64,000 nt of DNA from Candidatus Pacearchaeota archaeon. GTDB taxonomy: Archaea; Nanobdellota; Nanobdellia; Pacearchaeales; GW2011-AR1. A program made the position numbers and the translations under genes. Positions 8,361 to 59,315 of the stretch are shown here, in pieces. Each line of letters starts with the position of its first letter. Position 1 is the stretch's first letter. The notes beneath the pieces are model-generated. The model saw nothing but the letters and a program-made list of their open reading frames with translations. It searched no databases and was not told the DNA's origin. The DNA lies in the NCBI GenBank assembly GCA_050124795.1, contig JASFEO010000004.1, forward strand, positions 1,968 through 65,967, in the 5' to 3' direction.

Positions 8361-8361
8361 T

Positions 8362-8977: not shown

Positions 8978-9027
8978 AACTAAAATTAATCAAGACAAGT
9001 TTTTAATTGTTTTTATTTACTATAAAA

Positions 9028-10525: not shown

Positions 10526-10577
10526 CCAATAAAAACCAAAAACTTCTTTTTAAAAATTTATATTCAAATTAACAAGT

Positions 10578-10991
10578 TTACTTATTCAACAACAACTCAA
10601 TCTTCTTAGGATTTCTTTTTATTTCCTTAACAATTGTCGCAGGACCAATAATTGTTATTGACGTTAAATCCCCGCCGGACAAAGCACTCACAATTCCCTT
10701 TTTAAATTTTCCAAACAAACTAGAATTTCCATTTCCTGCAATCACAGCGAGTTCAATTCCCTTAAAATCCTTTACATGATTTATCATTGCCATGGTGTCT
10801 CCGATTAATCTTGTTTCCTCCATTGGTCTCAGTCTCCCCTGCAAAATCAAAATATTATTTCCAAAAACAATATCAAGAACTTTTCTGATTCTCTCATCTG
10901 AATTTAAATCCCTTATTTCTGAGAACGGCAAAAACTGCAATTGCAACCCCCTTAACTTCCCAACAGTCTTCCCCCTCTTTTTTTTCGCCAT
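10578..10991 (-). CDS. DUF2073-like conserved archaeal protein (OapB-like)
   Basis: 137 aa. LQGRLRPMEETRLIGDTMAMI...FKGIEL fits my recollection of DUF2073. It lies directly downstream of the small GTPase gene. Confidence 0.5.
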   Translation of the reverse strand: MAKKKRGKTVGKLRGLQLQFLPFSEIRDLNSDERIRKVLDIVFGNNILILQGRLRPMEETRLIGDTMAMINHVKDFKGIELAVIAGNGNSSLFGKFKKGIVSALSGGDLTSITIIGPATIVKEIKRNPKKIELLLNK

Positions 10992-11029
10992 TTTATTATT
11001 AATGTTTTTTAACTTTTAAAATTATTTAA

Positions 11030-11671
11030 TTATAGTTTTTTAGTTAATTTAAAAATTGATTCATAAAATTCTTCCAAGTTGTCGCCATACTTTGCACTGA
11101 TTGAAACCAAGTCATATTCAGAAAATGCAGCCTCAATTCTTTTGACATCTGAAGATTTTAAATCAGTTTTATTCGCAACAATTAAAACAGGAATTTTCCT
11201 TGCAACTAAATTTCCAATAATAGTTATATTAACCTGGTTATACGGGTTCTCAGTTGAATCTAAAACAACAACAACTATGTCCATGTCATCAAGCCACTTT
11301 ATACTTTCAATAACTCCCTGCGTTGCTTCTTTGGCCCGCTTCTTAGCTTCCTTTTTCTTTACCTTAAATTTTAGAAATTCTTCATAATCAATTTTTGTGG
11401 CGATCCCGGGAGTATCAATCATCTTAAACACCAAAGTTTTTCCCTTGTATTTAATTTCAACCTTTTCCTTAAACTGAACATTCCTTGTCTCATGAGGAAC
11501 TTTTGAAACACTTCCGATTTCCTCTCCTGTAAAATCCTTACAAATTCTGTTTGCTAAAGAAGTCTTTCCTGCATTAGGTGGACCATAAAACCCAAGCTTG
11601 ACCTCTTTTTTATTTCTGAAAATTCCTGAAAAAACCCTCCCAAAAAAATTCTTAAAAATTTTTATTACCAT
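11030..11671 (-). CDS. small GTP-binding protein (OapA-like / Era-like)
   Basis: G1 GPPNAGKTS, G3 DTPGI and G4 NKTD in the correct order. Confidence 0.8.
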   Translation of the reverse strand: MVIKIFKNFFGRVFSGIFRNKKEVKLGFYGPPNAGKTSLANRICKDFTGEEIGSVSKVPHETRNVQFKEKVEIKYKGKTLVFKMIDTPGIATKIDYEEFLKFKVKKKEAKKRAKEATQGVIESIKWLDDMDIVVVVLDSTENPYNQVNITIIGNLVARKIPVLIVANKTDLKSSDVKRIEAAFSEYDLVSISAKYGDNLEEFYESIFKLTKKL

Positions 11672-11721
11672 AATTCAATTTACCAATTAGACTTTATTAA
11701 GTTTATTGTGTTCTTTCACAA

Positions 11722-14394
11722 TCATCTCCTAAATCCCCTTCTTTGATTAAATCGATTAAACGGATTTTTATTTTGCTTTTTATCAAGAACTCCTTTTTTC
11801 TTTAACTTATCCAAAACCTTGCCAATCGGAAGTTCAAACATTCCTGTCCGCTTTCCGGCATGCTTTTTCATTGCATAATTAACCTGCTCAGAATTCCAAC
11901 CCGCCTTTCTTAACTTAGAATAAATATCCTTATCCTTAACACCTTTCTTCCGCGAGTTCTGAATATAAACAACAAGATTATACAAATTATTTCTATTCTT
12001 AAATAAATAAGTTTCATACCGATTCTTATACCAGCGCTGCAGAACAACATAAACAATCAATCCTATAAGAATCAACAAAGACAAAATAGAGCCAAACAAA
12101 ACCCATCTTGAAAAGGTTTCCTCTTCCTGAACAGAAGTAACCTTAGCCGAAAGTAATTCATCAATCTCCGGGGAAATAAAAAAAGGAAGATTAGTAAAAT
12201 CAACATCCTCTGTTGTTGAAAAAGAAACAGTCTCTTCTCCTTCCAGTAAAAAGTAAGTAAAACCAGACTCCTCGCTCTCAAGATAATCCCCATCAAAATA
12301 AAGATCATCTAAATTCTCTATTATAAAATAAGGCTCCCTTCCAAATTCCTCTTTTGGACTTACATCTATTTCAAAAAATCTCAAAATAGGTTCATCATGA
12401 GAAACATACCTCGCAGAAATTTCTTTAAAAGTTATCTTTGTACCAAGGTTCTCCTGGTTCCACGACAAAATTGCTTTAAGATATTCATCAGTTCTGTCAA
12501 TATCATAAATTCCCCCGCCAACAGTTTCAAGAATATACAAATCTATATATTCCTCCCTCGGGAAATAGGCAATTGAATTCGCACTCTTAGTTGTAAGGAC
12601 TAATTCAGGAATTTGCAGATCAAGAAGATCAGTCATAATCTGGTTATACTCTTCCTCAAAAAATGAATCCCCATAATCCTTCTTAAGCCTTTTTAATTCA
12701 TCCTCAAAAAATTCAAAATCAAAAAAAGAATTCAGGCGTTCCTGATAAAAACTATCAAAACCCTCTATCTGGAGTTTCACATTTTTCAAATCCCTTGTCT
12801 TCTTAATAAAAGTGGTGTTTATCAAATTTTCAGGGGACACAACTTCGATATCAAATTCCTTAAAAGAAGACCTCCCAAGAGAATCGACAACAGTCACCCC
12901 GAGTGTATAATCCCCCGAAGACGCATATGTATGGGTGACCTGATTGATTGGGGTTATCCCCGTCTCACCATCGCCAAAATCCCACTCAAAACTCGCAGAG
13001 TTATTATTTAAAATCGGGACTATAAAAAGTGTTGGAAAAGCAGAAGCAGTTTTAGAAGGATAAATATTTCCAATCAAAGGAACATCTTCTATTGAGATAG
13101 TTTTAGAAAAAATTTGCTCATCATTAAATTTCAAAGTAAAATCAAAAGAACCATACTCCCCAGGAAGGATAAACCCCCCGCCATCAAGATGAAGCTTCTG
13201 GAAATCCGCGCTCAATAAAGAAGGGGTCTCGCCCAAAGCATAAAAATTATTCTCCTCTATCCCAACAAGACCTGGCTTACTATGAATAAGTTTAAGATTA
13301 TCAATTGTCAATTCCTGGTCTTTCCCTGAGATGATTCTTATAGGGATTATGCAACCATTTGAACAATTAAGCCCCCCATAACGATCAAAAAGATAATTAT
13401 TCACAAGCCCGCTAAAACTATTCCCCCCGGGAAGAACATTTGACACATTCAACACTCCCACAGAAGCAAAAGCCCTTGTCTGAGCAAAAAGCTGATAAGA
13501 ATTAGTCTCTCCCTTAACAGGAAATCCATTAAAACCACACAATTCTCCTGAAGAATATCCTCTTGTTCGGTATTCCCCGTCCCCCTCATCTGAATAAAGA
13601 CACACATAATAATCAGAAGGAGTTGCCACCATATAATCTACATCACATGAAACTTCACTCCCATTCGCAGTTATATTCTCTTTTGGTAAATCACATGACC
13701 TTTTAAAATCTCCATCAAGAGTATAAAGAGCCATTGTTAAATCCTTATTCCCCCCTTCTTCCTCGTAAACCCACGCTCCAAGCTTAAGCCCGGCAGAGCC
13801 AAATAAACTAATTCTCTGGCAATAAGGGAGGTTTGTTATTGCAGGGTTATAAAAATCTTCTGTTTCATTAAAACAACCATAGCTTTTAAGAAAACCACAT
13901 ACATCCAAAAGCGCCTTATCATTCCCATAATCAATAACTCCGTCATCTAATATGTCAAGACTCACCTGATTATAACAGGATGAAGAAGCATCACTCTCAA
14001 TATTAAAACTAATTGAAGTTATTGATTGGATTTCTCCTGAAACTCTAAGCCCGATAATTTCAGAATCCCTTGAGCCAAAAGAAAAACTTTTAGAAGTTTC
14101 AGGATTAGAAACAAAATAATCAGGGACACAATTAGTAGTAGTGCATGTATAAATAAAGCCAGGGGTATTGTTTGCCAGTGTGCCCAAACTAACTAAATTG
14201 CCAAAAGAATCTTCAAAAGAAGAATTAGCAGGTTCATCATTAAAACTTAAATTTACCCATCCGGTAAAATCCGCGCCAGGACCATAAATAGAAGAAGTAG
14301 AATGCGAAGGCTCTCCAATATTAAAAGATGCACAAACAAAAGCAGATAGAAAAACTGCCAAGGATAAAACTACAAAACCTCTTTTTTTCATCAT
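11722..14394 (-). CDS. large secreted surface protein with a PKD domain and a C-terminal membrane anchor
   Basis: Sec-type signal peptide. PKD-like WDFGDGE...HTYASSGDYTLGVTVVD. TM helix WVLFGSILSLLILIGLIVYVV near the C-terminus, then a basic tail. Confidence 0.75.
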   Translation of the reverse strand: MMKKRGFVVLSLAVFLSAFVCASFNIGEPSHSTSSIYGPGADFTGWVNLSFNDEPANSSFEDSFGNLVSLGTLANNTPGFIYTCTTTNCVPDYFVSNPETSKSFSFGSRDSEIIGLRVSGEIQSITSISFNIESDASSSCYNQVSLDILDDGVIDYGNDKALLDVCGFLKSYGCFNETEDFYNPAITNLPYCQRISLFGSAGLKLGAWVYEEEGGNKDLTMALYTLDGDFKRSCDLPKENITANGSEVSCDVDYMVATPSDYYVCLYSDEGDGEYRTRGYSSGELCGFNGFPVKGETNSYQLFAQTRAFASVGVLNVSNVLPGGNSFSGLVNNYLFDRYGGLNCSNGCIIPIRIISGKDQELTIDNLKLIHSKPGLVGIEENNFYALGETPSLLSADFQKLHLDGGGFILPGEYGSFDFTLKFNDEQIFSKTISIEDVPLIGNIYPSKTASAFPTLFIVPILNNNSASFEWDFGDGETGITPINQVTHTYASSGDYTLGVTVVDSLGRSSFKEFDIEVVSPENLINTTFIKKTRDLKNVKLQIEGFDSFYQERLNSFFDFEFFEDELKRLKKDYGDSFFEEEYNQIMTDLLDLQIPELVLTTKSANSIAYFPREEYIDLYILETVGGGIYDIDRTDEYLKAILSWNQENLGTKITFKEISARYVSHDEPILRFFEIDVSPKEEFGREPYFIIENLDDLYFDGDYLESEESGFTYFLLEGEETVSFSTTEDVDFTNLPFFISPEIDELLSAKVTSVQEEETFSRWVLFGSILSLLILIGLIVYVVLQRWYKNRYETYLFKNRNNLYNLVVYIQNSRKKGVKDKDIYSKLRKAGWNSEQVNYAMKKHAGKRTGMFELPIGKVLDKLKKKGVLDKKQNKNPFNRFNQRRGFRR

Positions 14395-14436: not shown

Positions 14437-15993
14437 TTACTTCGCCTTCTTTTTTGATTTTCTTTTCTTAGTTTTTTTAAAATTTTTATTCTTAAAAATT
14501 ATATATCCCAAAATTAAAATAACCGCAACAATCACAAAATTCTTAAGGGTAAAAAAAGAAAGCTGAACCTTGGCAGGACATTGCAAAGTGCTGCTTCCGC
14601 CGAGACATTCTGTCAACAAAGAATTAATTCCGTTGAACAAAGGATCATAATGCCACAAATCATCAAATCCGGTTTCTATTAAAGAATCAAAGAAAACACA
14701 GCTTAGCGCATCTCCCCCGGCGGCCATGCATTCTGCCTGACTTCCCCATCCACTATTATCTGTTGGCCAATCAATATCTGCGACCCATGAATAAGTTAAA
14801 AATCCATCATTACAATCATCATTAGTATTTTCATTATAATTGCAGATACCAATTCCTAAAGAAGAAGTATCATATTCATAACCCAAACTTTCATTAACAG
14901 ATTCCCATCCTGCATTACACTCTCCTGTAGAATTCTCCCAAAAACAATTGCATACATAGCCATCCCCACAAGTGATATCCTCATTAATCGCTCCAACACT
15001 ATCTACCGCTACAAGACAAGTATCTTGGGTACATGTTGTTTCAGCGCCATAATCCCTGCAATAATTAATATTAACACAACTTCCTCCGCTAATAGTAAGT
15101 GCAAGGTCATTGCTCTGCCTTGAATCTACCTCAAAAAAGAATTCTCCTAAATCAGAAGTCTTAGATAAATCATCCTGTGTAATTGTCCAATAAACTATAC
15201 TTGTTCCATTGCTGTCAACATCGCCAATTAAAGCATCACTTCCTGTCCTGATTTCATCATCATCACTAATAAAAGGAATATAAGGATCATCTTCAAATAT
15301 CTCAAAAGAAACAGTTCCACTGGGAGGATCAACATTTTTTACAACAAGTGCTACCTGAGTAACTCCGGGCACAACTTCCAGATAACTAACTGCATAACGG
15401 GGGTCATTTGGGCTCCCCCAATAGATTTCCCCTGAAACACACCTCCCATTAAGATTACAGACTTCTTCTGCTGCACATCCCGGGGGGCAAGTTCCCCCGC
15501 AACCATCATCTCCGCATTCCTTACCAGTACAATTAGCAACACAACGCTGGCGACAGCAAACTTTTATAGGATATGTTGCAAAATCTGACAAGTGAGCATT
15601 TGTTGTAGAAGACAATGAAAGCATCGGGATATCATACCCCGCCGGGCATGAGCCAGAATTACTTGAACACTCTAGATCCCCGAAATAAACATTAGTTGCA
15701 TAATTAGTTAGACTTGGGATTTCTGCATGAGCATTCGTAGAAGAAGAAAGACCAAAAATTTTATTATTCCCGTCCTGTGTATGGTTGCCAGTAAAATTAC
15801 AGCAAAGAAAATAATTATAATTTGCCCCGTCATATACTTCTGCATGAGCATTTGTTGTATCGGATAATTTAAGAACAGTGTTTTCAGGAGCGCACGAAGT
15901 CTGAATATCACAATAATCTGCAGCAGAAACAACTAAGGAAAAAAATACAATTAAAAATAATCCTACAAAAAACAAACCCCTTTTTCTATCCAT
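14437..15993 (-). CDS. Cys-rich secreted surface protein with a 3x TNAH repeat and a C-terminal TM anchor
   Basis: Signal peptide. Three repeats (LSDTTNAHAEV / LSSSTNAHAEI / LSSTTNAHLSD). A CGDDGCGGTC module. C-terminal TM plus a K-rich tail. Confidence 0.75.
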   Translation of the reverse strand: MDRKRGLFFVGLFLIVFFSLVVSAADYCDIQTSCAPENTVLKLSDTTNAHAEVYDGANYNYFLCCNFTGNHTQDGNNKIFGLSSSTNAHAEIPSLTNYATNVYFGDLECSSNSGSCPAGYDIPMLSLSSTTNAHLSDFATYPIKVCCRQRCVANCTGKECGDDGCGGTCPPGCAAEEVCNLNGRCVSGEIYWGSPNDPRYAVSYLEVVPGVTQVALVVKNVDPPSGTVSFEIFEDDPYIPFISDDDEIRTGSDALIGDVDSNGTSIVYWTITQDDLSKTSDLGEFFFEVDSRQSNDLALTISGGSCVNINYCRDYGAETTCTQDTCLVAVDSVGAINEDITCGDGYVCNCFWENSTGECNAGWESVNESLGYEYDTSSLGIGICNYNENTNDDCNDGFLTYSWVADIDWPTDNSGWGSQAECMAAGGDALSCVFFDSLIETGFDDLWHYDPLFNGINSLLTECLGGSSTLQCPAKVQLSFFTLKNFVIVAVILILGYIIFKNKNFKKTKKRKSKKKAK

Positions 15994-16035: not shown

Positions 16036-17460
16036 TTAACCCTTAACAACTGTTAATGGTTTCAATCTTGCAACCTTCTTGCTTATCCCAAGTTCATCAA
16101 CAACCCTTACAACCTCGTCGATGTCCTTGTAAACTTCAGGAGCTTCCTCTGACAAACTCTTAACACTCCCTGCCATAACTTCAATTCCTTTTTTATGAAG
16201 ACTTTCCTCCACACTCTCACCTTTAATATTTTTAATTGCCTTGCTTCTCGATAAAACCCTCCCTGCACCATGAACAGTTGAACCCCATGTTAATCCTTCT
16301 GCTTTTTTTGTTCCAACTAAAACATAAGAAGAAGTCCCCATGCTCCCGGGGATCAAAACCGGCTGCCCAACTTTTCTATACTTTTCCGGGACTTCAATTC
16401 TTCCAGGACCAAAACTTCTCGTCGCGCCCTTTCTATGAACGCAAATTTTTTTCTTTTCACCGTTAATTTCATATTCTTCAAACTTTGCAATATTATGGCA
16501 CACTTCATAAACAACTTCAATCTTCAAATTCTTTTTATCAAAAAATAATTTTTCCAATTCCTCACGAATCCAGTGCGTAATTAATTGCTTATTTGCGAAT
16601 GCAAAATTTGCTGCAGCATTGTGCGCTGCCAAATAATCCCGCCCCAATTTAGAATTTATTGGCGCATTAATTAATTCCCTGTCAGGCAAATCGCGAAAGC
16701 CATATTCACTTTCCATTTTTTTAATATAATCGCTTGCAATCTGATGGCCCAATCCTCTAGAACCGCAATGAATCATAATTGTCACATTTCCTTTTTTTAA
16801 ATTAAAAACTTCTGCAACCCCCTCATCAAAAATTTCATCAACATATTGAATCTCAAGAAAATGATTCCCTGCCCCCAAAGTTCCAAGCTGCCCGACTCCC
16901 CGCCGAATTGCTCTCTCAGAAATCTTAGTTGCATCAGCCCCATTCAAACACCCTTCCTCTTCAATATTAAGATAATCCTCCTTCTTTCCAAAACCTTTCT
17001 CAACAATATATTTGCTCCCTTCTTCAAGAACTCTAAAAAATTCTTTTTTTGTAATATTAAATCCGCTCCCCCTTCCGACCCCCGAAGGTATTTTTTTATA
17101 AAGTGCTTCAACAACTTCTTTTTGTTTTTTTAAAATATCTTCCTTTGTCAAATTTGTTCTAAGCAATCTAACTGAGCAATCAATATCATAACCAACACCC
17201 CCCGGAGAAATAACTCCTTTTTCCAAATCAAACGCAGCAACCCCGCCGATTGAAAACCCATATCCTTGGTGAGCATCAGGAAGCGCGATTGAATAATTCA
17301 AAATCCCAGGCAAACACGCAACATTTTTCACCTGCTCAATTGTCTTATCTTGTTTTATTGCTTCAAAAATTTTCTCAGACGCAAAAATCCTCGCAGGAAC
17401 ATTCATCTTCCCTTCTTTTGGAATTTCATAAATATTCTCAGAAATTTTTTTTATCTCCAT
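16036..17460 (-). CDS. rtcB: RtcB RNA 3'-phosphate ligase (tRNA-splicing ligase)
   Basis: ALPDAHQGYGFSIGGVAAFD, GYDIDCSVR, GAGNHFLE and HCGSRGLGHQ are canonical RtcB motifs. Confidence 0.95.
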   Translation of the reverse strand: MEIKKISENIYEIPKEGKMNVPARIFASEKIFEAIKQDKTIEQVKNVACLPGILNYSIALPDAHQGYGFSIGGVAAFDLEKGVISPGGVGYDIDCSVRLLRTNLTKEDILKKQKEVVEALYKKIPSGVGRGSGFNITKKEFFRVLEEGSKYIVEKGFGKKEDYLNIEEEGCLNGADATKISERAIRRGVGQLGTLGAGNHFLEIQYVDEIFDEGVAEVFNLKKGNVTIMIHCGSRGLGHQIASDYIKKMESEYGFRDLPDRELINAPINSKLGRDYLAAHNAAANFAFANKQLITHWIREELEKLFFDKKNLKIEVVYEVCHNIAKFEEYEINGEKKKICVHRKGATRSFGPGRIEVPEKYRKVGQPVLIPGSMGTSSYVLVGTKKAEGLTWGSTVHGAGRVLSRSKAIKNIKGESVEESLHKKGIEVMAGSVKSLSEEAPEVYKDIDEVVRVVDELGISKKVARLKPLTVVKG

Positions 17461-17494: not shown

Positions 17495-17905
17495 CTAAAC
17501 ATCCAAAACAACCTGCACGACCCACTTTTCATTTTCTTTTTTTACAAACATCTGGTTATATGTTATAGCCTTAACATTATTTGTAAAGTCATAATTCTTT
17601 GACTCATCACCAAAAACTTCGGCACTCAAATTTCCGTTTATAATTTTAATATTCCTTATTTCACTAATTAAAAAATTCTCTGAATCAAGCAAATACAAAA
17701 ACTCTTCCAAAAAATTATAAAGAAGACTTTCATCATCCTTTGCCTTAATCTTTATTTTCTTCCTTATCTTTTTCTGAATTTTTAACCCCCCGCAGATAGA
17801 TTCTCGTAATGCAAAAAAAGAATTTCTAAATGCCCCCTCCTTTGTTTTTCCAAATGCCTGAAATTTTATATCTGCAGTATGTTCTAGGAATTTAAAATTT
17901 TTCAT
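17495..17905 (-). CDS. archease (RtcB activator)
   Basis: FKFLEHTADIKFQAFG N-terminus, about 136 aa, directly upstream of rtcB. Confidence 0.85.
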   Translation of the reverse strand: MKNFKFLEHTADIKFQAFGKTKEGAFRNSFFALRESICGGLKIQKKIRKKIKIKAKDDESLLYNFLEEFLYLLDSENFLISEIRNIKIINGNLSAEVFGDESKNYDFTNNVKAITYNQMFVKKENEKWVVQVVLDV

Positions 17906-18381
17906 TTAACATAACAAAAAAGTTTTAATTGCCTTGGGCTAAAAACTGCATAATTCGCAACAATAGTTATCGCCTGTGTATAAATCTCTCCGTCCAAACT
18001 TCCTTCCAAAAGACATGGGTCCTCCAATTCACAAATCCTCGCCGTGCAATTAAGATATTCAGGAGTTTGTTCAATTATTCTGTCTCTTACTCCCTGCAAA
18101 ATCCTTTCCCCGTTATTATCAAACTCCTCCCAAGGAATAGGCAAGGAACTTTCATTAAGTAAAGGACTATAGCTTGATCTGTTTGAAACAAGAATATTAT
18201 TTCTTAAAGTCTCATCAACCTGAACTCCCCTTAAAATAGAAAGCTGCGCATCATAGATTTCCGTCGATAGATCTCTTCCGATATAGCCTTTATTAATAAC
18301 CATCAGCAAAACCCCCACAATTAACAATATCGAAACAAACGCTTCAACAATCTTCATCCAACCCCTTTTATTTTTTAACAT
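17902..18381 (-). CDS. prepilin-like protein (class III signal peptide)
   Basis: MLKNKRG/WMKIVEAFVSILLIVGVLLMV: a basic-Gly cleavage-type motif followed by a hydrophobic helix. The stop overlaps the archease start (ATGA). Confidence 0.6.
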   Translation of the reverse strand: MLKNKRGWMKIVEAFVSILLIVGVLLMVINKGYIGRDLSTEIYDAQLSILRGVQVDETLRNNILVSNRSSYSPLLNESSLPIPWEEFDNNGERILQGVRDRIIEQTPEYLNCTARICELEDPCLLEGSLDGEIYTQAITIVANYAVFSPRQLKLFCYVK

Positions 18382-18458
18382 AATAAATAAAACAAATTTG
18401 ACTTAATAAATTTAATTATTAACCTATTTCTTAAATAAATCAGTCTCTGCAAAAAATC

Positions 18459-19175
18459 TTACCATACTTTTATTGTCAGGAATCCTGGGTTTATATCTGC
18501 CTCGCTATCAACAAAAAGAACAGGAATCTCTTCTGCGTAAACACTTGTCGAAACATTTTCATCAGGAGTCTCAATTAAAATTGTTTTTTTATCTGTAAAT
18601 GAAAATCCGAAATTAGACGAAACCTCCAGACTAAGATTCTCCTTAAGTGAAGAGTAATTAGACCAGTAATCAAGAATCACATCATTAATCTTAGATAAGA
18701 AAATTTCATTATTAATATTAGCTGATTTGAAAATATAACTATCATTTGAAAGTAATTGGCAGCCGGGGAGATTCCCTTTTCCAACAGTCCCGAACTCCTC
18801 TGAATTATATATTCTAAAAAGAGTATCATTAAGACTATTTCTATCGATCAAAAGATCATCCTGGTGATCTCTTACCTCAGTTATAATCCCACCGGATTCA
18901 TTTTTTAAAATAAAATTCTCGCTCTTCAATTGCCCGACAAAATCTTTCAGGCGAACACAATTAGAACTCGTAGTAACATTGATAACAAAGGTTATTCCCT
19001 CCATTTCTGACGAAAACGCTTCAATTAATTCTATTTCAATATTATCAAGAATCTTTTCTTTGTCTTCCTTTATCTGGATTGAAGGCTGCAATATCGAATA
19101 TAAAAATACAATAAAAGTTATAAAAATAACAAATGACAAGATCACCCCGACATGAGAACCCTTTTTTGAATGCAT
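18459..19175 (-). CDS. prepilin-like protein
   Basis: MHSKKG/SHVGVILSFVIFITFIVFLYSIL N-terminus. Located inside the pilus locus. Confidence 0.55.
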   Translation of the reverse strand: MHSKKGSHVGVILSFVIFITFIVFLYSILQPSIQIKEDKEKILDNIEIELIEAFSSEMEGITFVINVTTSSNCVRLKDFVGQLKSENFILKNESGGIITEVRDHQDDLLIDRNSLNDTLFRIYNSEEFGTVGKGNLPGCQLLSNDSYIFKSANINNEIFLSKINDVILDYWSNYSSLKENLSLEVSSNFGFSFTDKKTILIETPDENVSTSVYAEEIPVLFVDSEADINPGFLTIKVW

Positions 19176-19214
19176 AGATTAAATAAGAAAATTAGATTTA
19201 TTAATTTAACTTAT

Positions 19215-20054
19215 TTACGCACCAAGAAATAAATTAGCCACAGAGAAAATCAAAAAAGAAATAACCATTAATGCAAAAGAATGTTTAATCCCTGCCTTAA
19301 TGTTCCCCTCAGAAAGTTTTCCTATGGCGAGCCCGGAAAAAAAACCCTGAATCAAAAGCAAATATAAAAAAGCATCTGCTAATTCGGAACTTTCAATTGG
19401 AACAATAGTAGATGTCCCGGAAAAACCCGCTTCTAAGCCGGCTCCTGCAAGACCTGTAACCATCGGCAAAATCTTAAACTGCATTATAAGAATAATTAAA
19501 ATAAAAACAAAGAAAATTATATAACCCTGAACAACAAGGGTGGAAATTGCTGCCTTTCTTTCTTTTTTTAATTTATCTGTCATTGTCACTGCCCCTGCGA
19601 CTGCCTGTAAAATCCTCCCGATATCCCCCCCCGCCTTTTCTGCCTGGCCGATTAAAGTTAATGCTCTTGAAATTGTTTTGTTATCAACATCCTTTGAAAA
19701 AGTCTGCAAAGCAGAATTTAATGGAATGCCCAAGGAAATTTGATTTGCGAGTTTTCTTACATTCTTGCTTAAAACCCCGTAAGACTTCTTCTTCAAATTA
19801 ATTATACTTTTACTTATCGGAGTTCCGCTTGAAACACTTTCAACTAAGTTTCTTGCAAATTCCAAAAACATTTCTTCTTTTTCATTAGCAATTCTTGTTT
19901 CATTAATACTGGTTACAACAAAAGGAATCGCCCCGATAAGCAGACCAAAGCCAATTAAAATAAAGAAAAAAGAAGTATCAATAAAAAATAGAGATCCAAT
20001 CACGATTAAAAGAGAAACTGCGATTGAAATCCAGTGTATTTTTTTTAATTCCAT
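19215..20054 (-). CDS. type II secretion F-domain platform protein (TadC/FlaJ-like)
   Basis: Polytopic protein. The cytoplasmic helical domain between TM segments is typical of T2SSF. It abuts the preceding platform gene (TAA then ATG). Confidence 0.65.
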   Translation of the reverse strand: MELKKIHWISIAVSLLIVIGSLFFIDTSFFFILIGFGLLIGAIPFVVTSINETRIANEKEEMFLEFARNLVESVSSGTPISKSIINLKKKSYGVLSKNVRKLANQISLGIPLNSALQTFSKDVDNKTISRALTLIGQAEKAGGDIGRILQAVAGAVTMTDKLKKERKAAISTLVVQGYIIFFVFILIILIMQFKILPMVTGLAGAGLEAGFSGTSTIVPIESSELADAFLYLLLIQGFFSGLAIGKLSEGNIKAGIKHSFALMVISFLIFSVANLFLGA

Positions 20055-21377
20055 TTATGTGCTCGGCTGTTTTAAATATAAAAATGTAAGGAAGAGAACA
20101 TTAATCATTGAAACTCCAAGTATCATTATAAGAGTGATAACTGAAGTGCTTAATGCAATTCCAAGACCGCTTATTTTAATTAAAATAACAAGAAGCATTA
20201 AAATCATCGGCGCTGCAATAACTACACTTATATAAATATCCATAAAAGTTTCTGCAGACTTAGTATATTTTTCCCTCTCAAGGCGGTAATCAAAAAGAAG
20301 TGTCTCTGATCTCTTGTCAAAAAATTCTCTTAAATCCCCCCCTGAAGTAATTGTTGTCGCGAAGCCATTAAGAAGTTCTGCAAGTTTTTTGCTTGGAGTA
20401 TTTAACGCAGTACTCTTCAAAGCATTAACAAGATCATACCCATAAATAGCGATTTCATTTATTAATTTTATAAATTCCTTTTCAATTGCAACATATTCTT
20501 TTGTTGAAATTAAAACACTAAAAATTTTGCTTGGGTCAATCAAAGAACCTGAGATCGCGAACATATGAATTGCTGCGAATGGAAGTTCCTGATTAATCTG
20601 GTTCTCAAGTGCCTTTTTCTCCATTGAAGGATAAAAATATCCAAAAGCAAAAGTTACAAGAGGAATTGCAAAAGGAATCCAAAAAATTTTCAATAACCTG
20701 CTTATTGGATCAACTGCAGCTCTTGTAATGATCGGCCACTCTGCCCCGAAATTAAAGAATATAAAGAATAAAAGAATAAAAAGTGAAACAAAAAAAGAAA
20801 GAAGAGTTGTAAAAAAAAGAGTTGAAATATAACTCGCAGGAATAAACTGCAGATTTGCTTTTATCAAATCTCTTTCAAGCCCCCTAAAAATTTCGCTCTT
20901 GGAAACCGAAGAAGAAAATTTAAAGAAAAATCTATTCGCAAATAAAACATATTTATTTGGTTTTTTTATCTTCTTTTTTGCCTTAACTGCTTTTTTCTTT
21001 TTTACTCTTTTCAAGGTCTCTTTCTCAAGACTTGATATTCCAATCTCTTTTTCAAAAGATTTTCCAAATAAAGATTCAAAAACTCCTTTCTTTTTTATTT
21101 TTGGTATTTCTTTTTTATTTGGAAGGTTGTCTCTCATTTCAACTTCATTAGAAGTTTTTGGAATCAAGGGTTTTGCAATAGAAATATTTTCAACAAAAGG
21201 AATAATATTTTTATTTTCATCTTTTAATGACTTAGTTAAAGAATTAATATGAGACATAATTATTTTTCTCTCAGAACCCCTTCTTCCGCTTAAAGAAGAA
21301 AAAGAAGACTCAAGTTCATTAAATATTTTTTTCTCATTCATGATTATCTCTTTTAACTTAACAAAATCAGGCTTCAT
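20055..21377 (-). CDS. type II secretion F-domain platform protein (TadB/FlaJ-like) with a long N-terminal extension
   Basis: The C-terminal half has the T2SSF layout (helical domain flanked by TMs). The N-terminal ~150 aa are K-rich and soluble. Confidence 0.6.
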   Translation of the reverse strand: MKPDFVKLKEIIMNEKKIFNELESSFSSLSGRRGSERKIIMSHINSLTKSLKDENKNIIPFVENISIAKPLIPKTSNEVEMRDNLPNKKEIPKIKKKGVFESLFGKSFEKEIGISSLEKETLKRVKKKKAVKAKKKIKKPNKYVLFANRFFFKFSSSVSKSEIFRGLERDLIKANLQFIPASYISTLFFTTLLSFFVSLFILLFFIFFNFGAEWPIITRAAVDPISRLLKIFWIPFAIPLVTFAFGYFYPSMEKKALENQINQELPFAAIHMFAISGSLIDPSKIFSVLISTKEYVAIEKEFIKLINEIAIYGYDLVNALKSTALNTPSKKLAELLNGFATTITSGGDLREFFDKRSETLLFDYRLEREKYTKSAETFMDIYISVVIAAPMILMLLVILIKISGLGIALSTSVITLIMILGVSMINVLFLTFLYLKQPST

Positions 21378-21550
21378 TTTAAAACTTCCTCGATCTTTTT
21401 CTGTGCTTCAAGAATAAATTCTTTTAACATTTGAACTCCGTCATAATTTTTATTTTGATATGCAGTCTCAAGTTTCACTTCTGCTTCCCCAAGACTTCTG
21501 ATTAACTGTCCCAAAAAAATAATCTCTTCTTTTTTCAATCCCTCTTTCAT
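21374..21550 (-). CDS. unannotated 58-aa helical micro-protein, first gene of the platform operon
   Basis: ATG 21550 to TGA 21374: MKEGLKKEEIIFLGQLIRSLGEAEVKLETAYQNKNYDGVQMLKEFILEAQKKIEEVLK. The stop overlaps the next ATG (ATGA). A TATA-like box sits about 25 nt upstream of the ATG. It falls below the 60-aa track cut-off. Confidence 0.5.
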   Translation of the reverse strand: MKEGLKKEEIIFLGQLIRSLGEAEVKLETAYQNKNYDGVQMLKEFILEAQKKIEEVLK

Positions 21551-21571
21551 CAACTAAAATAGTAAAGATAG

Positions 21572-21579
21572 ATTATAAA
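21572..21579 (-). promoter_or_regulatory. TATA-box-like element (TTTATAAT on the minus strand), possibly giving a leaderless transcript
   Basis: 21 nt separate the box from ATG 21550. No Shine-Dalgarno sequence lies between them. Confidence 0.35.
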
Positions 21580-21602
21580 TATTTTGTTTTAAAAAATAAA
21601 AA

Positions 21603-23024
21603 TTAAGCAACAGTTATGGAAGTGTTTCCAAGAGTTGTAGTTACGCTTCCTCCTTCAAGACCATAAACTCCTCCAAAGTTATAAGTCCCCGGAGTTGTTG
21701 GCGCCTGAACAGTATATGTAAATGGATCATTTCTTACATCATATGGAGACAAAGAAAAATTATCAATCCATACCCATGCCAACCTTGTTGAATTGCCATA
21801 TCCTCCATCATCATCAGTTATAGTCCATCCTACAGGGATATATTCTTCCAAAGCATAATATTCTTCTCCACTCTGAAGATATACATAAACATCAATATTC
21901 ATTGTTCCACCAGGCGAAATAGTTGAACTTGAAAACTCTCTATACATCATTGAAATTGCTGGTGAAGTACATGTTTGGTTACAGCATCTTGTTGAATCAG
22001 ATGCAACCAATATTGTTCCTCCGCAGGTCTCTGCTCCAACACAAATATCTCCTGAGCAAGGTTGAGATGAACCATTGCTTACAGCCAAAGTTCCTCCTGA
22101 ACTAATAATACTTTCACTTTCTCCTGCAACATATGCAATAAAATAATAATCCCTTGGATCTATCCCAACATCATCATCACCAACATATGTCCATGATGCT
22201 ATCCAGGATCCACTTGAAGAAGTTCCTGAAAAAGTTATATTAGCAGGATTTGTAGGAGAAGTTGGAACAAGGTCATCAGAAACAAGAAAATCATATTCCC
22301 AAATCTGAAACCAAATATCCTTGCCATCACAATCAGTTCCCTGAAGATTCATTGAAACAGTTGCCCCATCAACAACACTTAAAGTACTCCAGAAAGCATT
22401 TGTCAAATCACATGTCGCAGTATCAATTTCACAACTTCCAATAGAAGTATTACAATGATAACCTGAAGAACATGAACCGCATCCACAAGTAGAACCATTC
22501 ACACTATAATATCCACAAGTATAACTATTGTCAGAACAAAAAGAAGGACAATTAACAGAAGCCCCACCACCAGCTACATTCAATCTATAAAAAGCAATAA
22601 TCCCCCCTGTAATTGTTTTTCCTGAATCAGACTTATATATCGGAGCAATAGAAATTGTTTGAACATTATCAATATCTAACTGAGCTAATGTAAAATTAAA
22701 TCTCTTTTGCCCTAATTCTTGTAAACTAATATCATCAAATTCAAAAACTTCAGAATTTTGCCCATCATTAACAATAAATTTCAATCCATATAAATCCCCT
22801 TTTCCTGCATTTCTTTTAACATCAATCTCAGCATAGTCAGTTGAATTATCAACATTCACATTTTTTATATCAAGACTTGTTGTAAACTTATCAAGAAAAA
22901 TTTGTTCCCCCCCTTCCTGAACAAGGTTTGCAATTACAACCCAGACAATTCCAATTGCAACTAAAACTAAAAGAATTATTATCAAAGTTGTAACAATAGT
23001 ACTCAACCCCTTTTTCTTAAGCAT
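21603..23024 (-). CDS. large prepilin-like protein with a Cys-rich adhesin-like C-terminal region
   Basis: MLKKKG/LSTIVTTLIIILLVLVAIGIV class III-type N-terminus. Cys-rich block (CPSFCSDNSYTCGYY..CGCGSCSSGYHC). A module similar to one in ORF 14437-15993. Confidence 0.65.
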   Translation of the reverse strand: MLKKKGLSTIVTTLIIILLVLVAIGIVWVVIANLVQEGGEQIFLDKFTTSLDIKNVNVDNSTDYAEIDVKRNAGKGDLYGLKFIVNDGQNSEVFEFDDISLQELGQKRFNFTLAQLDIDNVQTISIAPIYKSDSGKTITGGIIAFYRLNVAGGGASVNCPSFCSDNSYTCGYYSVNGSTCGCGSCSSGYHCNTSIGSCEIDTATCDLTNAFWSTLSVVDGATVSMNLQGTDCDGKDIWFQIWEYDFLVSDDLVPTSPTNPANITFSGTSSSGSWIASWTYVGDDDVGIDPRDYYFIAYVAGESESIISSGGTLAVSNGSSQPCSGDICVGAETCGGTILVASDSTRCCNQTCTSPAISMMYREFSSSTISPGGTMNIDVYVYLQSGEEYYALEEYIPVGWTITDDDGGYGNSTRLAWVWIDNFSLSPYDVRNDPFTYTVQAPTTPGTYNFGGVYGLEGGSVTTTLGNTSITVA

Positions 23025-23115
23025 GCTACTTATAGAAAAAAAGAGTTTATAAATATTTTGCTAAACAAAATCCTCAATAATAATTTAATTAGTCCTGCCA
23101 CGAAGAGAAATAAAG

Positions 23116-24684
23116 TTAAATCTGAACCTTAAACTTTTTCAGAACTTCATCCGGCTTTTTATAATATTCATCTACTATTTTCTGAACCTCTTCAAACCTA
23201 AAGATTTTATTTCTATAAAGAGAATATATTAATTTCGTCCTCTTTCTAAATTCCTCTTCAAGCTCATTCATCTTCATCCCGGTTCTCTTTGCGATCTTCT
23301 CAAATATCTTTGAATTTTTCTTAAAATAAAATTGATCATCAGCAGGATTCCACACAAAAGGGGTATTTGTTACTGCAACACCATCGGGGTTTACATTTAC
23401 AATCTCGACAATCTGCTTTAGTTTTCTTGTCTCATGACGATTAACAGTAGCATGAGTCATAATGCCGACACAATCAAGAACATTAACAAGCGTCGGTGAA
23501 AGTTCAATCGGCGGGGTCTCCAACCTTTTAATCACAGTATCAACTGAATCTGCATGCATAGTGCTAACTGAAGAATGACCTGATGCCATCCCCTGAAATA
23601 AAACAAATGCTTCTTTTCCCCTCACTTCACCGACGATAACATAATCTGGATTCTGTCTAAAAGAACTTCTAAGCAAAGTAAACAAATCAATCTCCTGGGT
23701 TTCATTAGAACCGGTCGCCCCTCTTGCAACACTTGGAAGCCAGTTTTCCCTCGGCAAATTCAATTCTCTTGTGTCCTCAATCGAAACAACCCTTGCTTCA
23801 GGAGGAATAAAAAACGCAACAGCATTCAATAAAGTTGTTTTTCCCGACGCTGTTCCCCCGGTTAACAAAATATTCATCTTATATTGCACCAAAAGCCACA
23901 AATACGCAAGCATCTCTGCAGACAAAGTATTCATTGACAATAACTGCGTCGGTGTCCATGGGGTTTTTGTAAACTTCCTTATTGTAAAAGTAGGCCCCCT
24001 CGACGTAATATCCTTTGTATAAGTTGCATTTACACGACTCCCATCAGGAAGACTTCCATCGAGAATTGGTCTTGCATAAGAAATATATTTTCCGCACCTT
24101 TGCGCTAACTTTTCAACAAAACTTGAAAGCCTTTCGATATCCTTAAAAACAAGATTTGTCCTCAAGTTTCTGTAAACACGATGAACAATATAAACAGGAG
24201 TGTCCGCCCCATTGCACTCAATATCCTCGACAAAATAATCCCTTAATAACGGGTCAACCTCATTAAAACCAATAAAATCCCTGCACAAATAATAATATAT
24301 CTTCTTATAAGTTTCATAATTAATATCTATCCCAAAATCAACTGCCAAAAACTTAAACCTCTTATCAATATACTCAAGAAGCTTCTCCTCCTTTTTCTCA
24401 ACAATCTCCTCAGTATTAATCATATCCCTTAAAATAGATTTCATTTTTTCCTTATACTCAAACTCCTCCTTGCTTAACAAAGGCTCTTCAATCTCATAAA
24501 CAACTTCATAAATCTTCGGGTCCCAATAAATATGAACATAAGCAAAAGGCGCAGCAAGACAATACCGAACATTAATCTTTGTCCTGTCTTTTATTTTTTT
24601 CAATGGATAAACCTTTGGGGAAAAATCCAAATACGGTCTTGCATAATTTTGTATTACTTCTTTTATTGAACTTTTCTTTTTCAT
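23116..24684 (-). CDS. type II/IV secretion ATPase (FlaI/PilB/VirB11 family)
   Basis: Walker A LLTGGTASGKTTLLNA. GEVRGKEA and Asp/His-box regions. The length and N-domain are typical of archaeal pilus/archaellum ATPases. Confidence 0.9.
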   Translation of the reverse strand: MKKKSSIKEVIQNYARPYLDFSPKVYPLKKIKDRTKINVRYCLAAPFAYVHIYWDPKIYEVVYEIEEPLLSKEEFEYKEKMKSILRDMINTEEIVEKKEEKLLEYIDKRFKFLAVDFGIDINYETYKKIYYYLCRDFIGFNEVDPLLRDYFVEDIECNGADTPVYIVHRVYRNLRTNLVFKDIERLSSFVEKLAQRCGKYISYARPILDGSLPDGSRVNATYTKDITSRGPTFTIRKFTKTPWTPTQLLSMNTLSAEMLAYLWLLVQYKMNILLTGGTASGKTTLLNAVAFFIPPEARVVSIEDTRELNLPRENWLPSVARGATGSNETQEIDLFTLLRSSFRQNPDYVIVGEVRGKEAFVLFQGMASGHSSVSTMHADSVDTVIKRLETPPIELSPTLVNVLDCVGIMTHATVNRHETRKLKQIVEIVNVNPDGVAVTNTPFVWNPADDQFYFKKNSKIFEKIAKRTGMKMNELEEEFRKRTKLIYSLYRNKIFRFEEVQKIVDEYYKKPDEVLKKFKVQI

Positions 24685-24685
24685 T

Positions 24686-25324
24686 TTAATCTATATCAAT
24701 ATTTATACTTAAAACCTCCTGAACATATTTGCAATAATTAGCAATACAATATTTTGAAAACCCAACTGAATATTGGGGATTTGTGCATGTTGAAGTATTT
24801 CCTGATGAACAATTGGAAGACAAATCAGTAAACTGATAATGCCCCCGATTAAGGATAGTTGCCTTATAAGAATTTGACGAAGAAGAAAGAATCTTTAATT
24901 TGTCTTCTGCAAAATAACTTAAATTGTATTCATCTGAATAATCTTTTGTTAAAGTTACATTATTTATTTTCCCGATTTTCTCTGTATAAAAGGTAATCCC
25001 CGACGCATCATTGTCAATCAAAACCCAGGGTTCAGAATATTGATATTTGCTTTCCATTTCAAAAATAATCTTATCAGACTTTGCATCAATTATGAAATTT
25101 CCTTTTTTTACTCCAAGTTCAATTATTCTTTGGTTTCCCGGAGCCTGAGACAAATCCTTAAAAACAGAGTCAAGAGTTTTCATTAATCCAAGGGATTGAT
25201 CAAGCACTGCCTGGTCCCGGCCTGCTTCAATTTTTGGTTTCACAACAGAAATTACTGTTCCAATCATAATCAATGCAATTAAAGTATAAATTACAGTTTC
25301 AACCCATACCTGACCTCTTTTCAT
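24686..25324 (-). CDS. prepilin-like protein
   Basis: MKRG/QVWVETVIYTLIALIMIGTVISVV N-terminus. Confidence 0.6.
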   Translation of the reverse strand: MKRGQVWVETVIYTLIALIMIGTVISVVKPKIEAGRDQAVLDQSLGLMKTLDSVFKDLSQAPGNQRIIELGVKKGNFIIDAKSDKIIFEMESKYQYSEPWVLIDNDASGITFYTEKIGKINNVTLTKDYSDEYNLSYFAEDKLKILSSSSNSYKATILNRGHYQFTDLSSNCSSGNTSTCTNPQYSVGFSKYCIANYCKYVQEVLSINIDID

Positions 25325-25366
25325 TCATCTAATATGAATTCTTAATTAATAAACTTAACGCAAAAA

Positions 25367-25876
25367 TTAACTCGCTAAGATTGAACAATCAGGAATATCA
25401 TAAACAGTGTCTGAAACCTTGCACGCTTTTCCATCTATAATAGGGGCCACCTCGATAAATCCTGGCTTGCCGGAAAATCCGGTTCCAATATAAGTTCTTC
25501 CTGAACTTTTATTTGGAATTACAACCTGTGCTCCTGAAGGGTAGGCAGACAAATCCGCAACAGTCGACAAAACATTTGTTATTTCATAAGACTTGGAAGC
25601 CTTTGTTGAACTATCAAAAACAGAGACAATTAATTTTTCCAAATCAACATCCCCTACATTTATCGAGAACTGAACATCATACGACGAAGAATTATAACAA
25701 GTATATTTGCTGTTAATTGTCACAGCATCAAAAATCCCAAAGCATGACTCTGCCTCTTCAAGACGATCTTCAACTAAATTCTTTACCATAACCCATACAA
25801 AACTAACCAAAGTAACAACCAGCAAAACAAGTATCAATACAGTAACAACCCCTGACAAACCTCTTTTTCTTAACAT
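25367..25876 (-). CDS. prepilin-like protein
   Basis: MLRKRG/LSGVVTVLILVLLVVTLVSFVWV N-terminus. Confidence 0.65.
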   Translation of the reverse strand: MLRKRGLSGVVTVLILVLLVVTLVSFVWVMVKNLVEDRLEEAESCFGIFDAVTINSKYTCYNSSSYDVQFSINVGDVDLEKLIVSVFDSSTKASKSYEITNVLSTVADLSAYPSGAQVVIPNKSSGRTYIGTGFSGKPGFIEVAPIIDGKACKVSDTVYDIPDCSILAS

Positions 25877-25927
25877 ACAAAATAAAAAATTTACAAGTTT
25901 ATTAATTTATCTGCTAATTAAATAGAA

Positions 25928-26371
25928 TTAATAAATAACAAGTTCATAGCCATGCTGGTTTTCATCACAGACAAAAGTTCTCTCTCCTCTTTCAGAACTT
26001 CCCAACAACACAGGAATTAAAACTATATTTGTTGCGCTCCCAATATTAACTCCTCCTGAAAAACTTCCACCCTGACTTAGGCCGCTAAACCCGGTTACAT
26101 CAACAGTATCATAACTTCCTTCTCCAATAACTTTCATTTTCATTCCATAAATCGGAACATTCCCATTATTGACTATTGATAATTCCCCTGCAGAATAACC
26201 CGCGTCAAAAGAAACATCATTGCAAACAAGTTCAATGTTCGTCCCTTCAAACTTTGTAATTGATTCCCGCGTCATTCCTTGAAACCATAAAAATATAATC
26301 AACCCAATAACAACAACCATCGCAATTAATAAAACCGTCGCAATCACCGGCGAAACCCCTTTTCTTTTCAT
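25928..26371 (-). CDS. archaeal type IV pilin (class III signal peptide)
   Basis: MKRKG/VSPVIATVLLIAMVVVIGL is the classic archaeal pilin N-terminus. Confidence 0.8.
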   Translation of the reverse strand: MKRKGVSPVIATVLLIAMVVVIGLIIFLWFQGMTRESITKFEGTNIELVCNDVSFDAGYSAGELSIVNNGNVPIYGMKMKVIGEGSYDTVDVTGFSGLSQGGSFSGGVNIGSATNIVLIPVLLGSSERGERTFVCDENQHGYELVIY

Positions 26372-26468
26372 AATAAAAATAAATAAATATGTTTTAAATA
26401 TGTTTTGATAATTAATTGTTAAATTTTAACAGCCCGCGCAATCGCGGGCATCTTCTAATCTCCACTCC

Positions 26469-57162: not shown

Positions 57163-57197
57163 TAAAACTTAAAAGTCCTGTTTCTTAAAAATTAAAT

Positions 57198-59243: not shown

Positions 59244-59315
59244 TGGTCCCACGCAGAATCGAACTGCGGTCTTATCCACGTCAAGGATATGTCTTGGCCA
59301 TTGGACTACAGGACC
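59244..59315 (-). tRNA. tRNA-Val (anticodon GAC)
   Basis: Hand-folded: acceptor GGUCCUG/UGGGACC (two G-U pairs), anticodon stem UAUCC/GGAUA with loop UUGACGU, T arm CGCAG-UUCGAUU-CUGCG, discriminator A. No encoded CCA. Confidence 0.85.

Follow-up and report, generated by a model that had tools for sequence, protein, structure and literature searches.

Gene content and setting of the locus

The stretch of DNA considered here, 64,000 nucleotides of contig JASFEO010000004.1 (assembly GCA_050124795.1) from a Candidatus Pacearchaeota archaeon and referred to below as the window, has a GC content of ~31-35% and finds its match in a Logan contig that derives from a wetland metagenome. Between positions 17902 and 26371 it carries a type IV pilus-like locus of ten same-strand genes, all on the minus strand, that encode six pilin-like proteins, one assembly ATPase, two membrane proteins with a single T2SSF domain each, and a micro-ORF (open reading frame); all ten are intact and the spacers among them range from -4 to 97 nt (Table 1). 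In the direction of transcription the order is p147, p169, p212, ATPase, p473, m58, platform N-half, platform C-half, p238 and p159. The reading of the locus as type-IV-pilus-like had been made from the letters of the sequence alone, and is now backed by domain matches, conservation, synteny and structure prediction. That original prediction spoke of eleven co-directional genes; the shared direction stands, but there are ten genes, which is also the sum of the six, one, two and one that it itemized. The gene for archease (17495-17905, minus strand), which overlaps the p159 stop by 4 nt, may have been counted as the eleventh.

Of the four components that define an archaeal type IV filament (TFF) machine, three are present and strongly conserved: a T2SSE/VirB11-family ATPase whose nucleotide-binding motifs are intact, a polytopic T2SSF platform made up of two adjacent one-domain genes, and subunits with class III signals, for which the pattern is found in six proteins and conserved in five families. 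The comparison set comprises 80 related loci fetched from GTDB species genomes, on which all window genes were mapped. Their ATPases are 70-80% identical among species, which points to strong purifying selection, and homologues are labelled Pacearchaeota, Nanoarchaeota or 'Woesearchaeota'. In most of the 80 loci, from metagenome-assembled genomes (MAGs) of these groups, the gene order given above is kept, with a variable slot in place of p473. One contig of the set (L036) is labelled 'Bacillota bacterium' yet carries the archaeal locus and is probably mis-binned, and two others (L003 and L004) belong to one MAG (JBDRGM01) and hold a copy each, reflecting either two systems or a mixed bin.

Table 1. 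Features of the pilus locus, with positions in the window unless a related locus is named; a slash follows the conserved glycine (or alanine) of the class III motif
Feature	Position	Strand	Description
p147	25928-26371	-	PilA-type prepilin, MKRKG/VSPVIATVLLIA...; TIGR02537 above cut-off
p169	25367-25876	-	Second PilA-like prepilin, MLRKRG/LSGVVTVLILV...; TIGR02537 above cut-off
p212	24686-25324	-	Pilin-like, Epd-type signal MKRG/QVWVETVIYTLIA; probable minor pilin
ATPase, 522 aa	23116-24684	-	FlaI/GspE/PilB family secretion/assembly ATPase; Pfam T2SSE
p473	21603-23024	-	Variable modular pilin, class III N-terminus and Cys-rich acidic C-terminal extension; candidate adhesin
m58 micro-ORF	21374-21553	-	58 aa if begun at the ATG at 21550 (Logan gene call), 59 aa if begun at TTG
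Platform N-half, 440 aa	20055-21377	-	~170-aa Lys-rich cytoplasmic extension and one T2SSF domain
Platform C-half, 279 aa	19215-20054	-	One T2SSF domain
p238	18459-19175	-	Pilin-like, MHSKKG/SHVGVILSFVIFITF; probable minor pilin
p159	17902-18381	-	Pilin-like, MLKNKRG/WMKIVEAFVSILLI; probable minor pilin
Intergenic region upstream of p147	26372-26468	-	Hairpin and AT-rich stretch, read directly from the sequence
Slot or gap variant ORFs in related loci	L054 9603-11363 (-); L057 8460-9827 (-); L009 7073-7574 (-); L022 11516-11830; L072 4324-4623		

Upstream of p147, directly after the stop of GatA, the minus strand carries a GC-rich hairpin (26432-26449; 7-bp stem GCCCGCG-ATTG-CGCGGGC) in a genome of ~33% GC, and downstream of the hairpin lies an AT-rich TATTTAAA (26393-26400, minus strand), ~22 nt 5' of the p147 ATG. 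Taken as a pair they possibly mark the start of the transcription unit, and would accord with a terminator and, after it, the promoter of a leaderless transcript; a scan for bacterial promoters and terminators is uninformative in an AT-rich archaeon.

The assembly ATPase

The 522-aa protein is, as had been recognized, a single ATPase of the FlaI/PilB family (Pfam T2SSE, E 1.7e-33, with a weak additional match to PilB3_C). It has an intact Asp box, Walker B and His box, and a P-loop, GGTASGKTT, that can be read from the sequence. Among solved structures the nearest relative is GspE of Archaeoglobus fulgidus (2OAP, 371 bits), followed by FlaI of Sulfolobus acidocaldarius (4II7, 279 bits) and Tad CpaF (154 bits), the GspE and FlaI alignments spanning nearly the entire protein. 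Among plasmid relatives, haloarchaeal pilus ATPases with ~40% identity come ahead of CpaF proteins with ~29-35%. These pairwise scores, with GspE, FlaI and CpaF as the references, put the ATPase nearer to GspE and FlaI than to CpaF. Of the NCBIfam models FlaI scores best, with 397 bits against an equivalog cut-off of 550 (NF058587), and BasE (208 bits) and TadA (143 bits) lie lower.

The prominence of FlaI in these matches raises the question of whether the locus encodes an archaellum and hence motility, as KEGG-style annotation of MAGs implies. The ArlJ/FlaJ models are likewise the best for both platform halves, many homologues of the ATPase bear the JGI name 'flagellar protein FlaI', and papers on MAGs list FlaI/J/K of Woesearchaeota and Nanoarchaeota as motility genes. 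We nevertheless consider an archaellum very improbable. The FlaI score falls well under the equivalog cut-off, and the ATPase is closer to the non-archaellar GspE of A. fulgidus than to FlaI itself; not one of the window's six pilin-like proteins matches Arch_flagellin (PF01917) at E <= 0.1, a single match (E 0.009) being found among 60 homologues of p212; and p147 resembles pilins of ~140 aa, not archaellins. The absence of archaellum accessory genes from the window, remarked on earlier, is borne out: no FlaB/F/G/H/X, KaiC, MinD or other type IV pilus gene was recognized in the scanned ORFs, the scan comprising Pfam searches of most remaining ORFs of at least 110 aa and the Logan Pfam calls for 27.8-35 kb, with the ORFs in 56797-62618 and 54212-54553 left out. 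What these scans show are housekeeping genes. Neither were FlaF/G/H/X/CDE among the genes recognized beside the 80 related loci, where the flanks were checked by tblastn with the window genes and not by a systematic family scan.

The split platform protein

Each of the two membrane proteins contains one T2SSF domain above the Pfam cut-off (E 1e-10 for the N-half and 2.4e-15 for the C-half), and the stop codon of the first is followed directly by the start codon of the second at 20054/20055, where the junction reads ...ACA TAA ATG GAA... with both ORFs in the same frame; the original prediction had described both points correctly. On the 555 positions of the NCBIfam ArlJ/FlaJ models the N-half aligns to 44-245 and the C-half to 271-547, and this colinear alignment identifies the two genes as the N-half and the C-half of a platform of the FlaJ/PilC type. 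FlaJ and UpsF are the best family models for the halves, which are only faintly alike (E 4e-4). The N-half is found in 65 loci with a median identity of 51%.

A shared frame interrupted by TAA alone, together with the lack of a peptidase in the window, could be taken as the mark of a decaying locus, in which an in-frame stop has split a fused platform gene and left the machine non-functional. This we regard as negligibly probable. In each of the 60 related loci where both halves are present, the N-half terminates at a stop codon; the halves lie in different frames in 44 of them, and the spacer varies from -4 to +419 nt, most commonly 1 nt (ATAAAATG). The ten ORFs are intact, the ATPase is highly identical across species, and the nearest relatives of the C-half are mostly stand-alone proteins: in a HMMER scan of 1.84 billion representatives, 107 of the best 150 matches are near full length, of which 68 are stand-alone proteins of 250-330 aa and nine are at least 500 aa long with the match at the C-terminus. 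One long fused platform of 829 aa comes from Thermoplasmatota, and the clusters of distant platform relatives are almost unnamed. Because the halves are separate in every one of the 60 loci and out of frame in 44, the split is, as judged from these sequences, an old gene fission with tight translational coupling. The same counts rule out a nonsense mutation, a sequencing error or programmed read-through at the TAA-ATG junction. A few related loci have an ORF of ~100 aa with a hydrophobic segment between the halves (for example L022 and L072, Table 1).

Two one-domain T2SSF genes are also what Epd and Tad pili possess, and the arrangement had been presented as Tad-like and out of the ordinary. 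That framing is not supported, given the distance of the ATPase from CpaF, the colinearity of the halves with FlaJ and the fact that two platform genes are documented for several archaeal TFF classes, DPANN included: two tadC-like genes occur in many Clade 2 loci (Makarova 2016, PMC4858521), a fission origin has been described for TadB/TadC and Epd-like systems (Denise 2019, PMC6668835), and DPANN loci with two platform genes are placed under System 1 and subsystem 4A (Sivabalasarma & Albers 2026 preprint, bioRxiv 10.64898/2026.04.22.720090). An Epd-like or Tad-like ('System 1') pilus, with the ancestral fission of TadB/TadC type in common, would accord with the split, with the reports of System 1 in DPANN and with p212, which carries the +1 Gln/+5 Glu signature of EppA-dependent pilins, yet we think it unlikely. 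The ATPase is much closer to GspE, FlaI and the haloarchaeal pilus ATPases than to CpaF, and the family matches of the platform halves include no TadB or TadC model. The N-half comes before the C-half, while in Tad, where tadB precedes tadC, TadB resembles the C-half and TadC the N-half. The candidate major pilin has 147 residues and a globular part, in place of a short Flp/Epd pilin of ~60-75 aa, and the locus has no EppA or TadZ gene.

Pilin-like proteins

The six proteins for which class-III-type N-termini had been proposed do all show the pattern, a [K/R]G ahead of a run of more than 20 hydrophobic residues. A simple class III pattern scan over the 159 window ORFs of at least 60 aa returned these six and five others, the latter comprising two neighbouring large surface proteins with Sec-like signals, a transmembrane (TM) helix of a K+ channel and two spurious ORFs; class-III-type N-termini are clustered in the locus far beyond chance. 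For five of the families, all but p473, the motif and the residues that follow are kept in 44-73 homologues, with [KR][KR][GA] at -3 to -1 and leaders that have a median length of 8-9 aa; the invariant residues of the mature N-terminus differ from family to family. Class III signals would be expected to show such conservation directly after the glycine and Sec signals would not, so that the possibility of ordinary Sec signals, which had been named as a finding that would overturn the prediction, is not borne out in these five families.

The most conserved pilin is p147, with a median identity of 53% in 65 loci and a mature start of G/[LV]SPVIATVLLIA in which S+2 and P+3 are kept in 100% and G-1 in 92% of sequences. 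It matches the archaellin/pilin N-terminal model TIGR02537 (E 2.6e-11), the UpsA model (47 bits) and, weakly, Pfam Pilin_N. Its best solved relatives are the archaeal type IV pilins of P. calidifontis (8FK7, E 4e-6) and C. divulgatum (8REY), and it aligns over ~100 residues to globular archaeal pilins. Being of PilA type, the most conserved and the product of the first gene, p147 is likely to be the major pilin. A second PilA-like subunit is proposed to be p169, which matches TIGR02537 (E 4.4e-6) and is kept in 69 loci with the motif [KR][KR][GA]/[LV]S and a mature start of G/LS.V[VI].

The other three conserved families have distinct mature starts. That of p212, a protein found in 75 loci and whose stop lies 1 nt before the ATPase start, is G/Q[VI]W[VI]ETVIYTLIA, with Q+1, W+3 and E+5 at 100%; that of p238, found in 48 loci, is G/SHVG..LSF.IF.TF, with S+8 and F+12 at 100% and H+2 at 93%, and two cysteines of the protein are invariant; that of p159, found in 46 loci, is G/W[IL][KR]IVEAF.AILL, with W+1 and E+6 at 100%, two invariant cysteines and two more that are conserved to at least 90%. 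A +1 Gln and +5 Glu are the signature of EppA-dependent pilins of Methanococcus maripaludis (PMC3875500), and p212 is the only pilin-like protein of the locus to have them. Some JGI copies of p212 are annotated 'pseudopilin PulG', and other database copies of p212, p238 and p159 are 'hypothetical'. AlphaFold2 models of p212 and p238, built with 69 and 75 database homologues, reach mean predicted local distance difference test (pLDDT) scores of 94.9 and 91.2 and place a helix at residues 3-58 followed by a beta head and at residues 8-54 followed by a beta/alpha head, respectively; this predicted 'lollipop' shape is pilin-like. When the profiles of p212 and p159 are compared, the N-terminal helix alone aligns. 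We propose that p212, p238 and p159 are probably conserved minor pilins, which would prime assembly or make up a tip complex.

The presence of five conserved pilin-like proteins recalls the pseudopilin sets of type II secretion systems (T2SS) and Com systems, and opens the further reading that the locus builds a short pseudopilus or a bindosome-like device for surface display or uptake, for example of DNA or a substrate, rather than a long adhesive pilus. NCBIfam matches to BasE (208 bits) and BasF (26 bits) lean the same way, as does the dependence of DPANN on imported nucleotides. The Bas scores lie far under their cut-offs and below those of FlaI and GspE, however; the window scans brought up neither a substrate-binding protein with a class III signal nor a ComEC-like channel, and p147 resembles the subunits of real pili. 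Such a device is in our estimate quite improbable.

The variable slot, the micro-ORF and the modular structure of the locus

The sixth pilin-like protein, p473, stands apart. Over its first 41 residues it shares 49% identity with p169, and the remainder, with no Pfam match, gives a protein with 16 cysteines, 10 N-x-S/T sequons and an acidic C-terminal extension. A full-length homologue is present in only one of the 80 related loci (L004), the slot between the ATPase and m58 genes being empty in most and differently filled in others, where it holds secreted proteins of 455-586 aa or two small ORFs, in each case on the opposite strand. The sizes of the pilins are thus as heterogeneous as had been noted (147-473 aa), but the main source of the spread is a non-conserved insert, and the variation does not make the locus unusual. 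We take p473 to be a modular pilin that varies among strains and probably presents a Cys-rich adhesive module, and as such a candidate adhesin. Like the modular pilin PilB of Streptococcus sanguinis (PMC8179133), p473 couples a pilin N-terminus to a large additional module, likely adhesive; the two have no sequence or domain similarity, and the extra module of p473 is Cys-rich and without a family match.

By tblastn, 34 loci have a conserved copy of the 58-aa micro-ORF singled out in the original prediction; its motif is LNQLI.SLEEAE.KLE.AY.KKDY. Its product is soluble and charged, lacks a hydrophobic or TM segment and matches no family, and its reading frame runs 4 nt into the start of the platform N-half gene. 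We take m58 to be a genuine small protein of the cytoplasm, with translational coupling to the platform, and propose an accessory role for it.

Four related loci (L005, L031, L059 and L062) have a pilin-ATPase half that is not followed by the platform half, and in L062 p238 and p159 are inverted and lie upstream. These four loci divide the whole into two modules, p147-p169-p212-ATPase and m58-platformN-platformC-p238-p159, and show that the system is sometimes encoded in two genomic places.

The prepilin peptidase

No prepilin peptidase is present in the window, as had been reported: none of the window ORFs with at least 3-4 predicted TM segments is of the A24 type. Neither did the 80 related loci show an A24 peptidase within ~8 kb of the ATPase, as far as their contigs extend; the scan of window and loci gave only a presenilin/signal-peptide-peptidase-type GxGD protease, a rhomboid, SpoIIM and transporters. 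This absence does not support a reading of the locus as unusual, since prepilin peptidases are commonly unlinked, as is PibD in Sulfolobus and Haloferax, and 64 kb is a small part of the genome. Because studies of MAGs annotate FlaK-type peptidases in Woesearchaeota and Nanoarchaeota, an A24-type peptidase is most likely encoded elsewhere in the genome, unlinked to the pilus genes.

The presenilin/signal-peptide-peptidase-type protease (PF06550; 901-1848, plus strand) is the only GxGD protease of the window and follows a gene for a beta-CASP RNase (51-845, plus strand). It is a distant mechanistic cousin of the prepilin peptidases, and nothing ties it to the pilus locus. In L059 an adjacent pair of genes for 627-aa and 317-aa proteins (10324-13202) resembles this RNase-protease pair by eye.

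Comparison with known type IV filament systems

The euryarchaeal PilA/PilB/PilC pili (Makarova 'Clade 2', 'System 2'), such as PilA1-6/PilB3C3 of Haloferax volcanii, have the PilA-type N-terminus [KR]G/xSPVIxxxLL in common with the Pacearchaeota locus. A haloarchaeal pil locus from Halobaculum, with a pilin start (QAVSPVIGVILMVAITV) comparable to that of p147, follows the same plan of PilA, ATPase, platform and, last, small proteins whose N-termini are hydrophobic, and the succession of pilins, ATPase, platform and small pilin-like genes fits the 'grand architectural plan' of euryarchaeal systems. The nearest solved relative of the ATPase is from A. fulgidus, and in Clade 2/System 2, as here, the peptidase is unlinked. 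There are also clear differences. In the 2026 preprint the System 2 platform is a single gene, whereas the Pacearchaeota locus has two; haloarchaeal PilB is longer (989 aa in L082, with N- and C-terminal extensions) than the minimal ATPase of 522 aa; and p212, p238, p159 and m58 have no recognized counterparts.

Loci of TFF subsystem 4A/System 1 in DPANN comprise an ATPase, two platform genes, pilins, often an adhesin, and accessory genes downstream of the platform, and in this they are alike to the locus described here, in which no PilY-like adhesin was recognized. The locus probably belongs to this DPANN class. The Epd pilus of M. maripaludis also has its platform encoded by two genes, numerous minor pilins none of which is dispensable, and a +1 Gln/+5 Glu signal, here in p212, but its major pilin is ~74 aa long and without a globular head, a dedicated EppA is encoded in the operon, and its ATPase belongs to a fast-evolving clade that is sister to Tad, in contrast to the conventional GspE/FlaI-like ATPase of Pacearchaeota. 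The platform of the bacterial Tad (Flp) pilus likewise consists of two one-domain T2SSF genes; the order of the halves differs, CpaF is only distantly similar, and the Flp pilin, TadZ, TadV and secretin are not in the Pacearchaeota locus. The FlaI/FlaJ core of the archaellum is homologous to the ATPase and platform, supplying their best NCBIfam matches, and differs in that those matches are sub-cut-off here, no archaellins or FlaF/G/H/X/CDE were recognized and the platform is split.

A proposed mode of assembly

Taken together, these data lead us to hold with good confidence that the locus encodes the assembly machinery of an archaeal type IV pilus in a DPANN archaeon of the Pacearchaeota/Nanoarchaeota. 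In such a machine the six pilin-like proteins would be inserted into the membrane, and their short (~4-9 aa), positively charged leaders would be cut after the conserved glycine by an A24-type peptidase acting in trans. A hexamer of the 522-aa ATPase would dock on a heterodimeric platform of the two one-domain T2SSF proteins, and ATP hydrolysis would lift pilins from the membrane and stack them by their N-terminal helices. The filament would be formed by p147, with or without p169, its assembly primed or its tip formed by p212, p238 and p159, while p473 would serve as a variable adhesin and m58 as a small cytoplasmic accessory protein. In size fractionation Pacearchaeota behave as strongly host-attached cells, and because they fractionate with large cells we infer that the likeliest function is attachment to host cells or surfaces.

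Several points weigh against this assignment. The best NCBIfam model for the ATPase is that of FlaI, even if it scores below its cut-off. Neither Pfam, NCBIfam nor PDB-sequence profiles match p212, p238 or p159, and scans of the individual family members against Pfam gave no recurrent family, so that the pilin status of these three proteins depends on their N-terminal motifs and predicted shape. A +1 Ser, as in p238, and a +1 Trp, as in p159, are unusual for class III signals. Foldseek comparison of the p212 and p238 models with the PDB gave no match at E <= 0.001, their heads being unlike those of solved pilins. Prepilin cleavage is assumed, as neither the window nor the scanned flanks contain a peptidase, and adhesion is an inference. 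The locus was found in one sequencing run only, a DNA run from the wetland metagenome.

Neighbouring genes and other features of the window

Downstream of p159 the archease gene is followed by that of RtcB (16036-17460, minus strand). A match to archease is present in 26 and one to RtcB in 38 of the 80 related loci, usually directly downstream of p159, and the pilus genes may be co-transcribed with this tRNA-ligase pair. Further downstream lie the genes of a Cys-rich 518-aa surface protein with a C-terminal TM anchor (14437-15993, minus strand) and of an 890-aa surface protein with a PKD domain (11722-14394, minus strand). At least seven related loci have a homologue of the 518-aa protein downstream of RtcB, and in L031 a similar protein of 898 aa follows it. 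The KRG and hydrophobic stretch at the N-termini of the 518-aa and 890-aa proteins look like Sec and not class III signals, and the L031 homologue has a plain Sec signal. A Cys-rich module common to p473 and the 518-aa protein was considered and rejected, the similarity not being significant (E 0.1).

Elsewhere in the window, the genes of OapC (7953-8360, minus strand) and OapB (10578-10991, minus strand) flank an ORF-poor stretch (gap 8361-9233), near which short repeats occur: CTAACAAAATTTCCA at 9363 and 9568, similar copies at 8173 and, in inverted orientation, a copy at 8518-8539. The Oap-flanked stretch may be a replication origin, although the repeats near OapB and OapC gave no clear origin signature. 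A tRNA-Thr gene (62648-62757, plus strand) extends over 109 nt according to Rfam and 75 nt according to ARAGORN, a difference that may reflect an intron or a 5' extension. Finally, a DisA-type diadenylate cyclase (49422-50510, minus strand) and a DHH/DHHA1 phosphoesterase (47828-48865, minus strand) are encoded close together, which suggests cyclic di-AMP signalling in a reduced genome.

Implications for Pacearchaeota

The locus fits the established plan of archaeal type IV filaments; it is real and strongly conserved, and is not a new kind of machine. Two-gene platforms, unlinked peptidases and many minor pilins were already known from archaeal type IV filament systems, DPANN included. What is mildly new is the set of p212, p238 and p159 families and m58, which lack any annotation or structural match, the mixing of PilA-type and Epd-type signals within one locus, and the two-module structure with a variable slot. 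The locus contradicts the published statement that DPANN lack type IV pilus components, and equally the annotation practice by which a FlaI in a MAG is taken to mean motility.

Few DPANN archaea are as reduced or as firmly attached to hosts as Pacearchaeota, none of which has been cultivated, and a strongly conserved pilus locus is an obvious candidate for their attachment apparatus. It provides concrete targets in p147 as the likely filament subunit and in p212, p238 and p159 as unannotated minor pilins, while the variable slot occupied by p473 is a possible determinant of host range. A bolder proposal, which we put forward tentatively and consider rather doubtful, is that the five conserved pilin-like families and m58 constitute a DPANN-specific variant of the type IV pilus, whose minor-pilin complex, in addition to the variable adhesin, would be an organ for recognizing and holding the host, perhaps also for tapping it, or for taking up DNA. 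If true, this would overturn the assumption, founded on a supposed lack of type IV pilus genes in DPANN, that pili on ultra-small groundwater cells mark bacteria of the Candidate Phyla Radiation.

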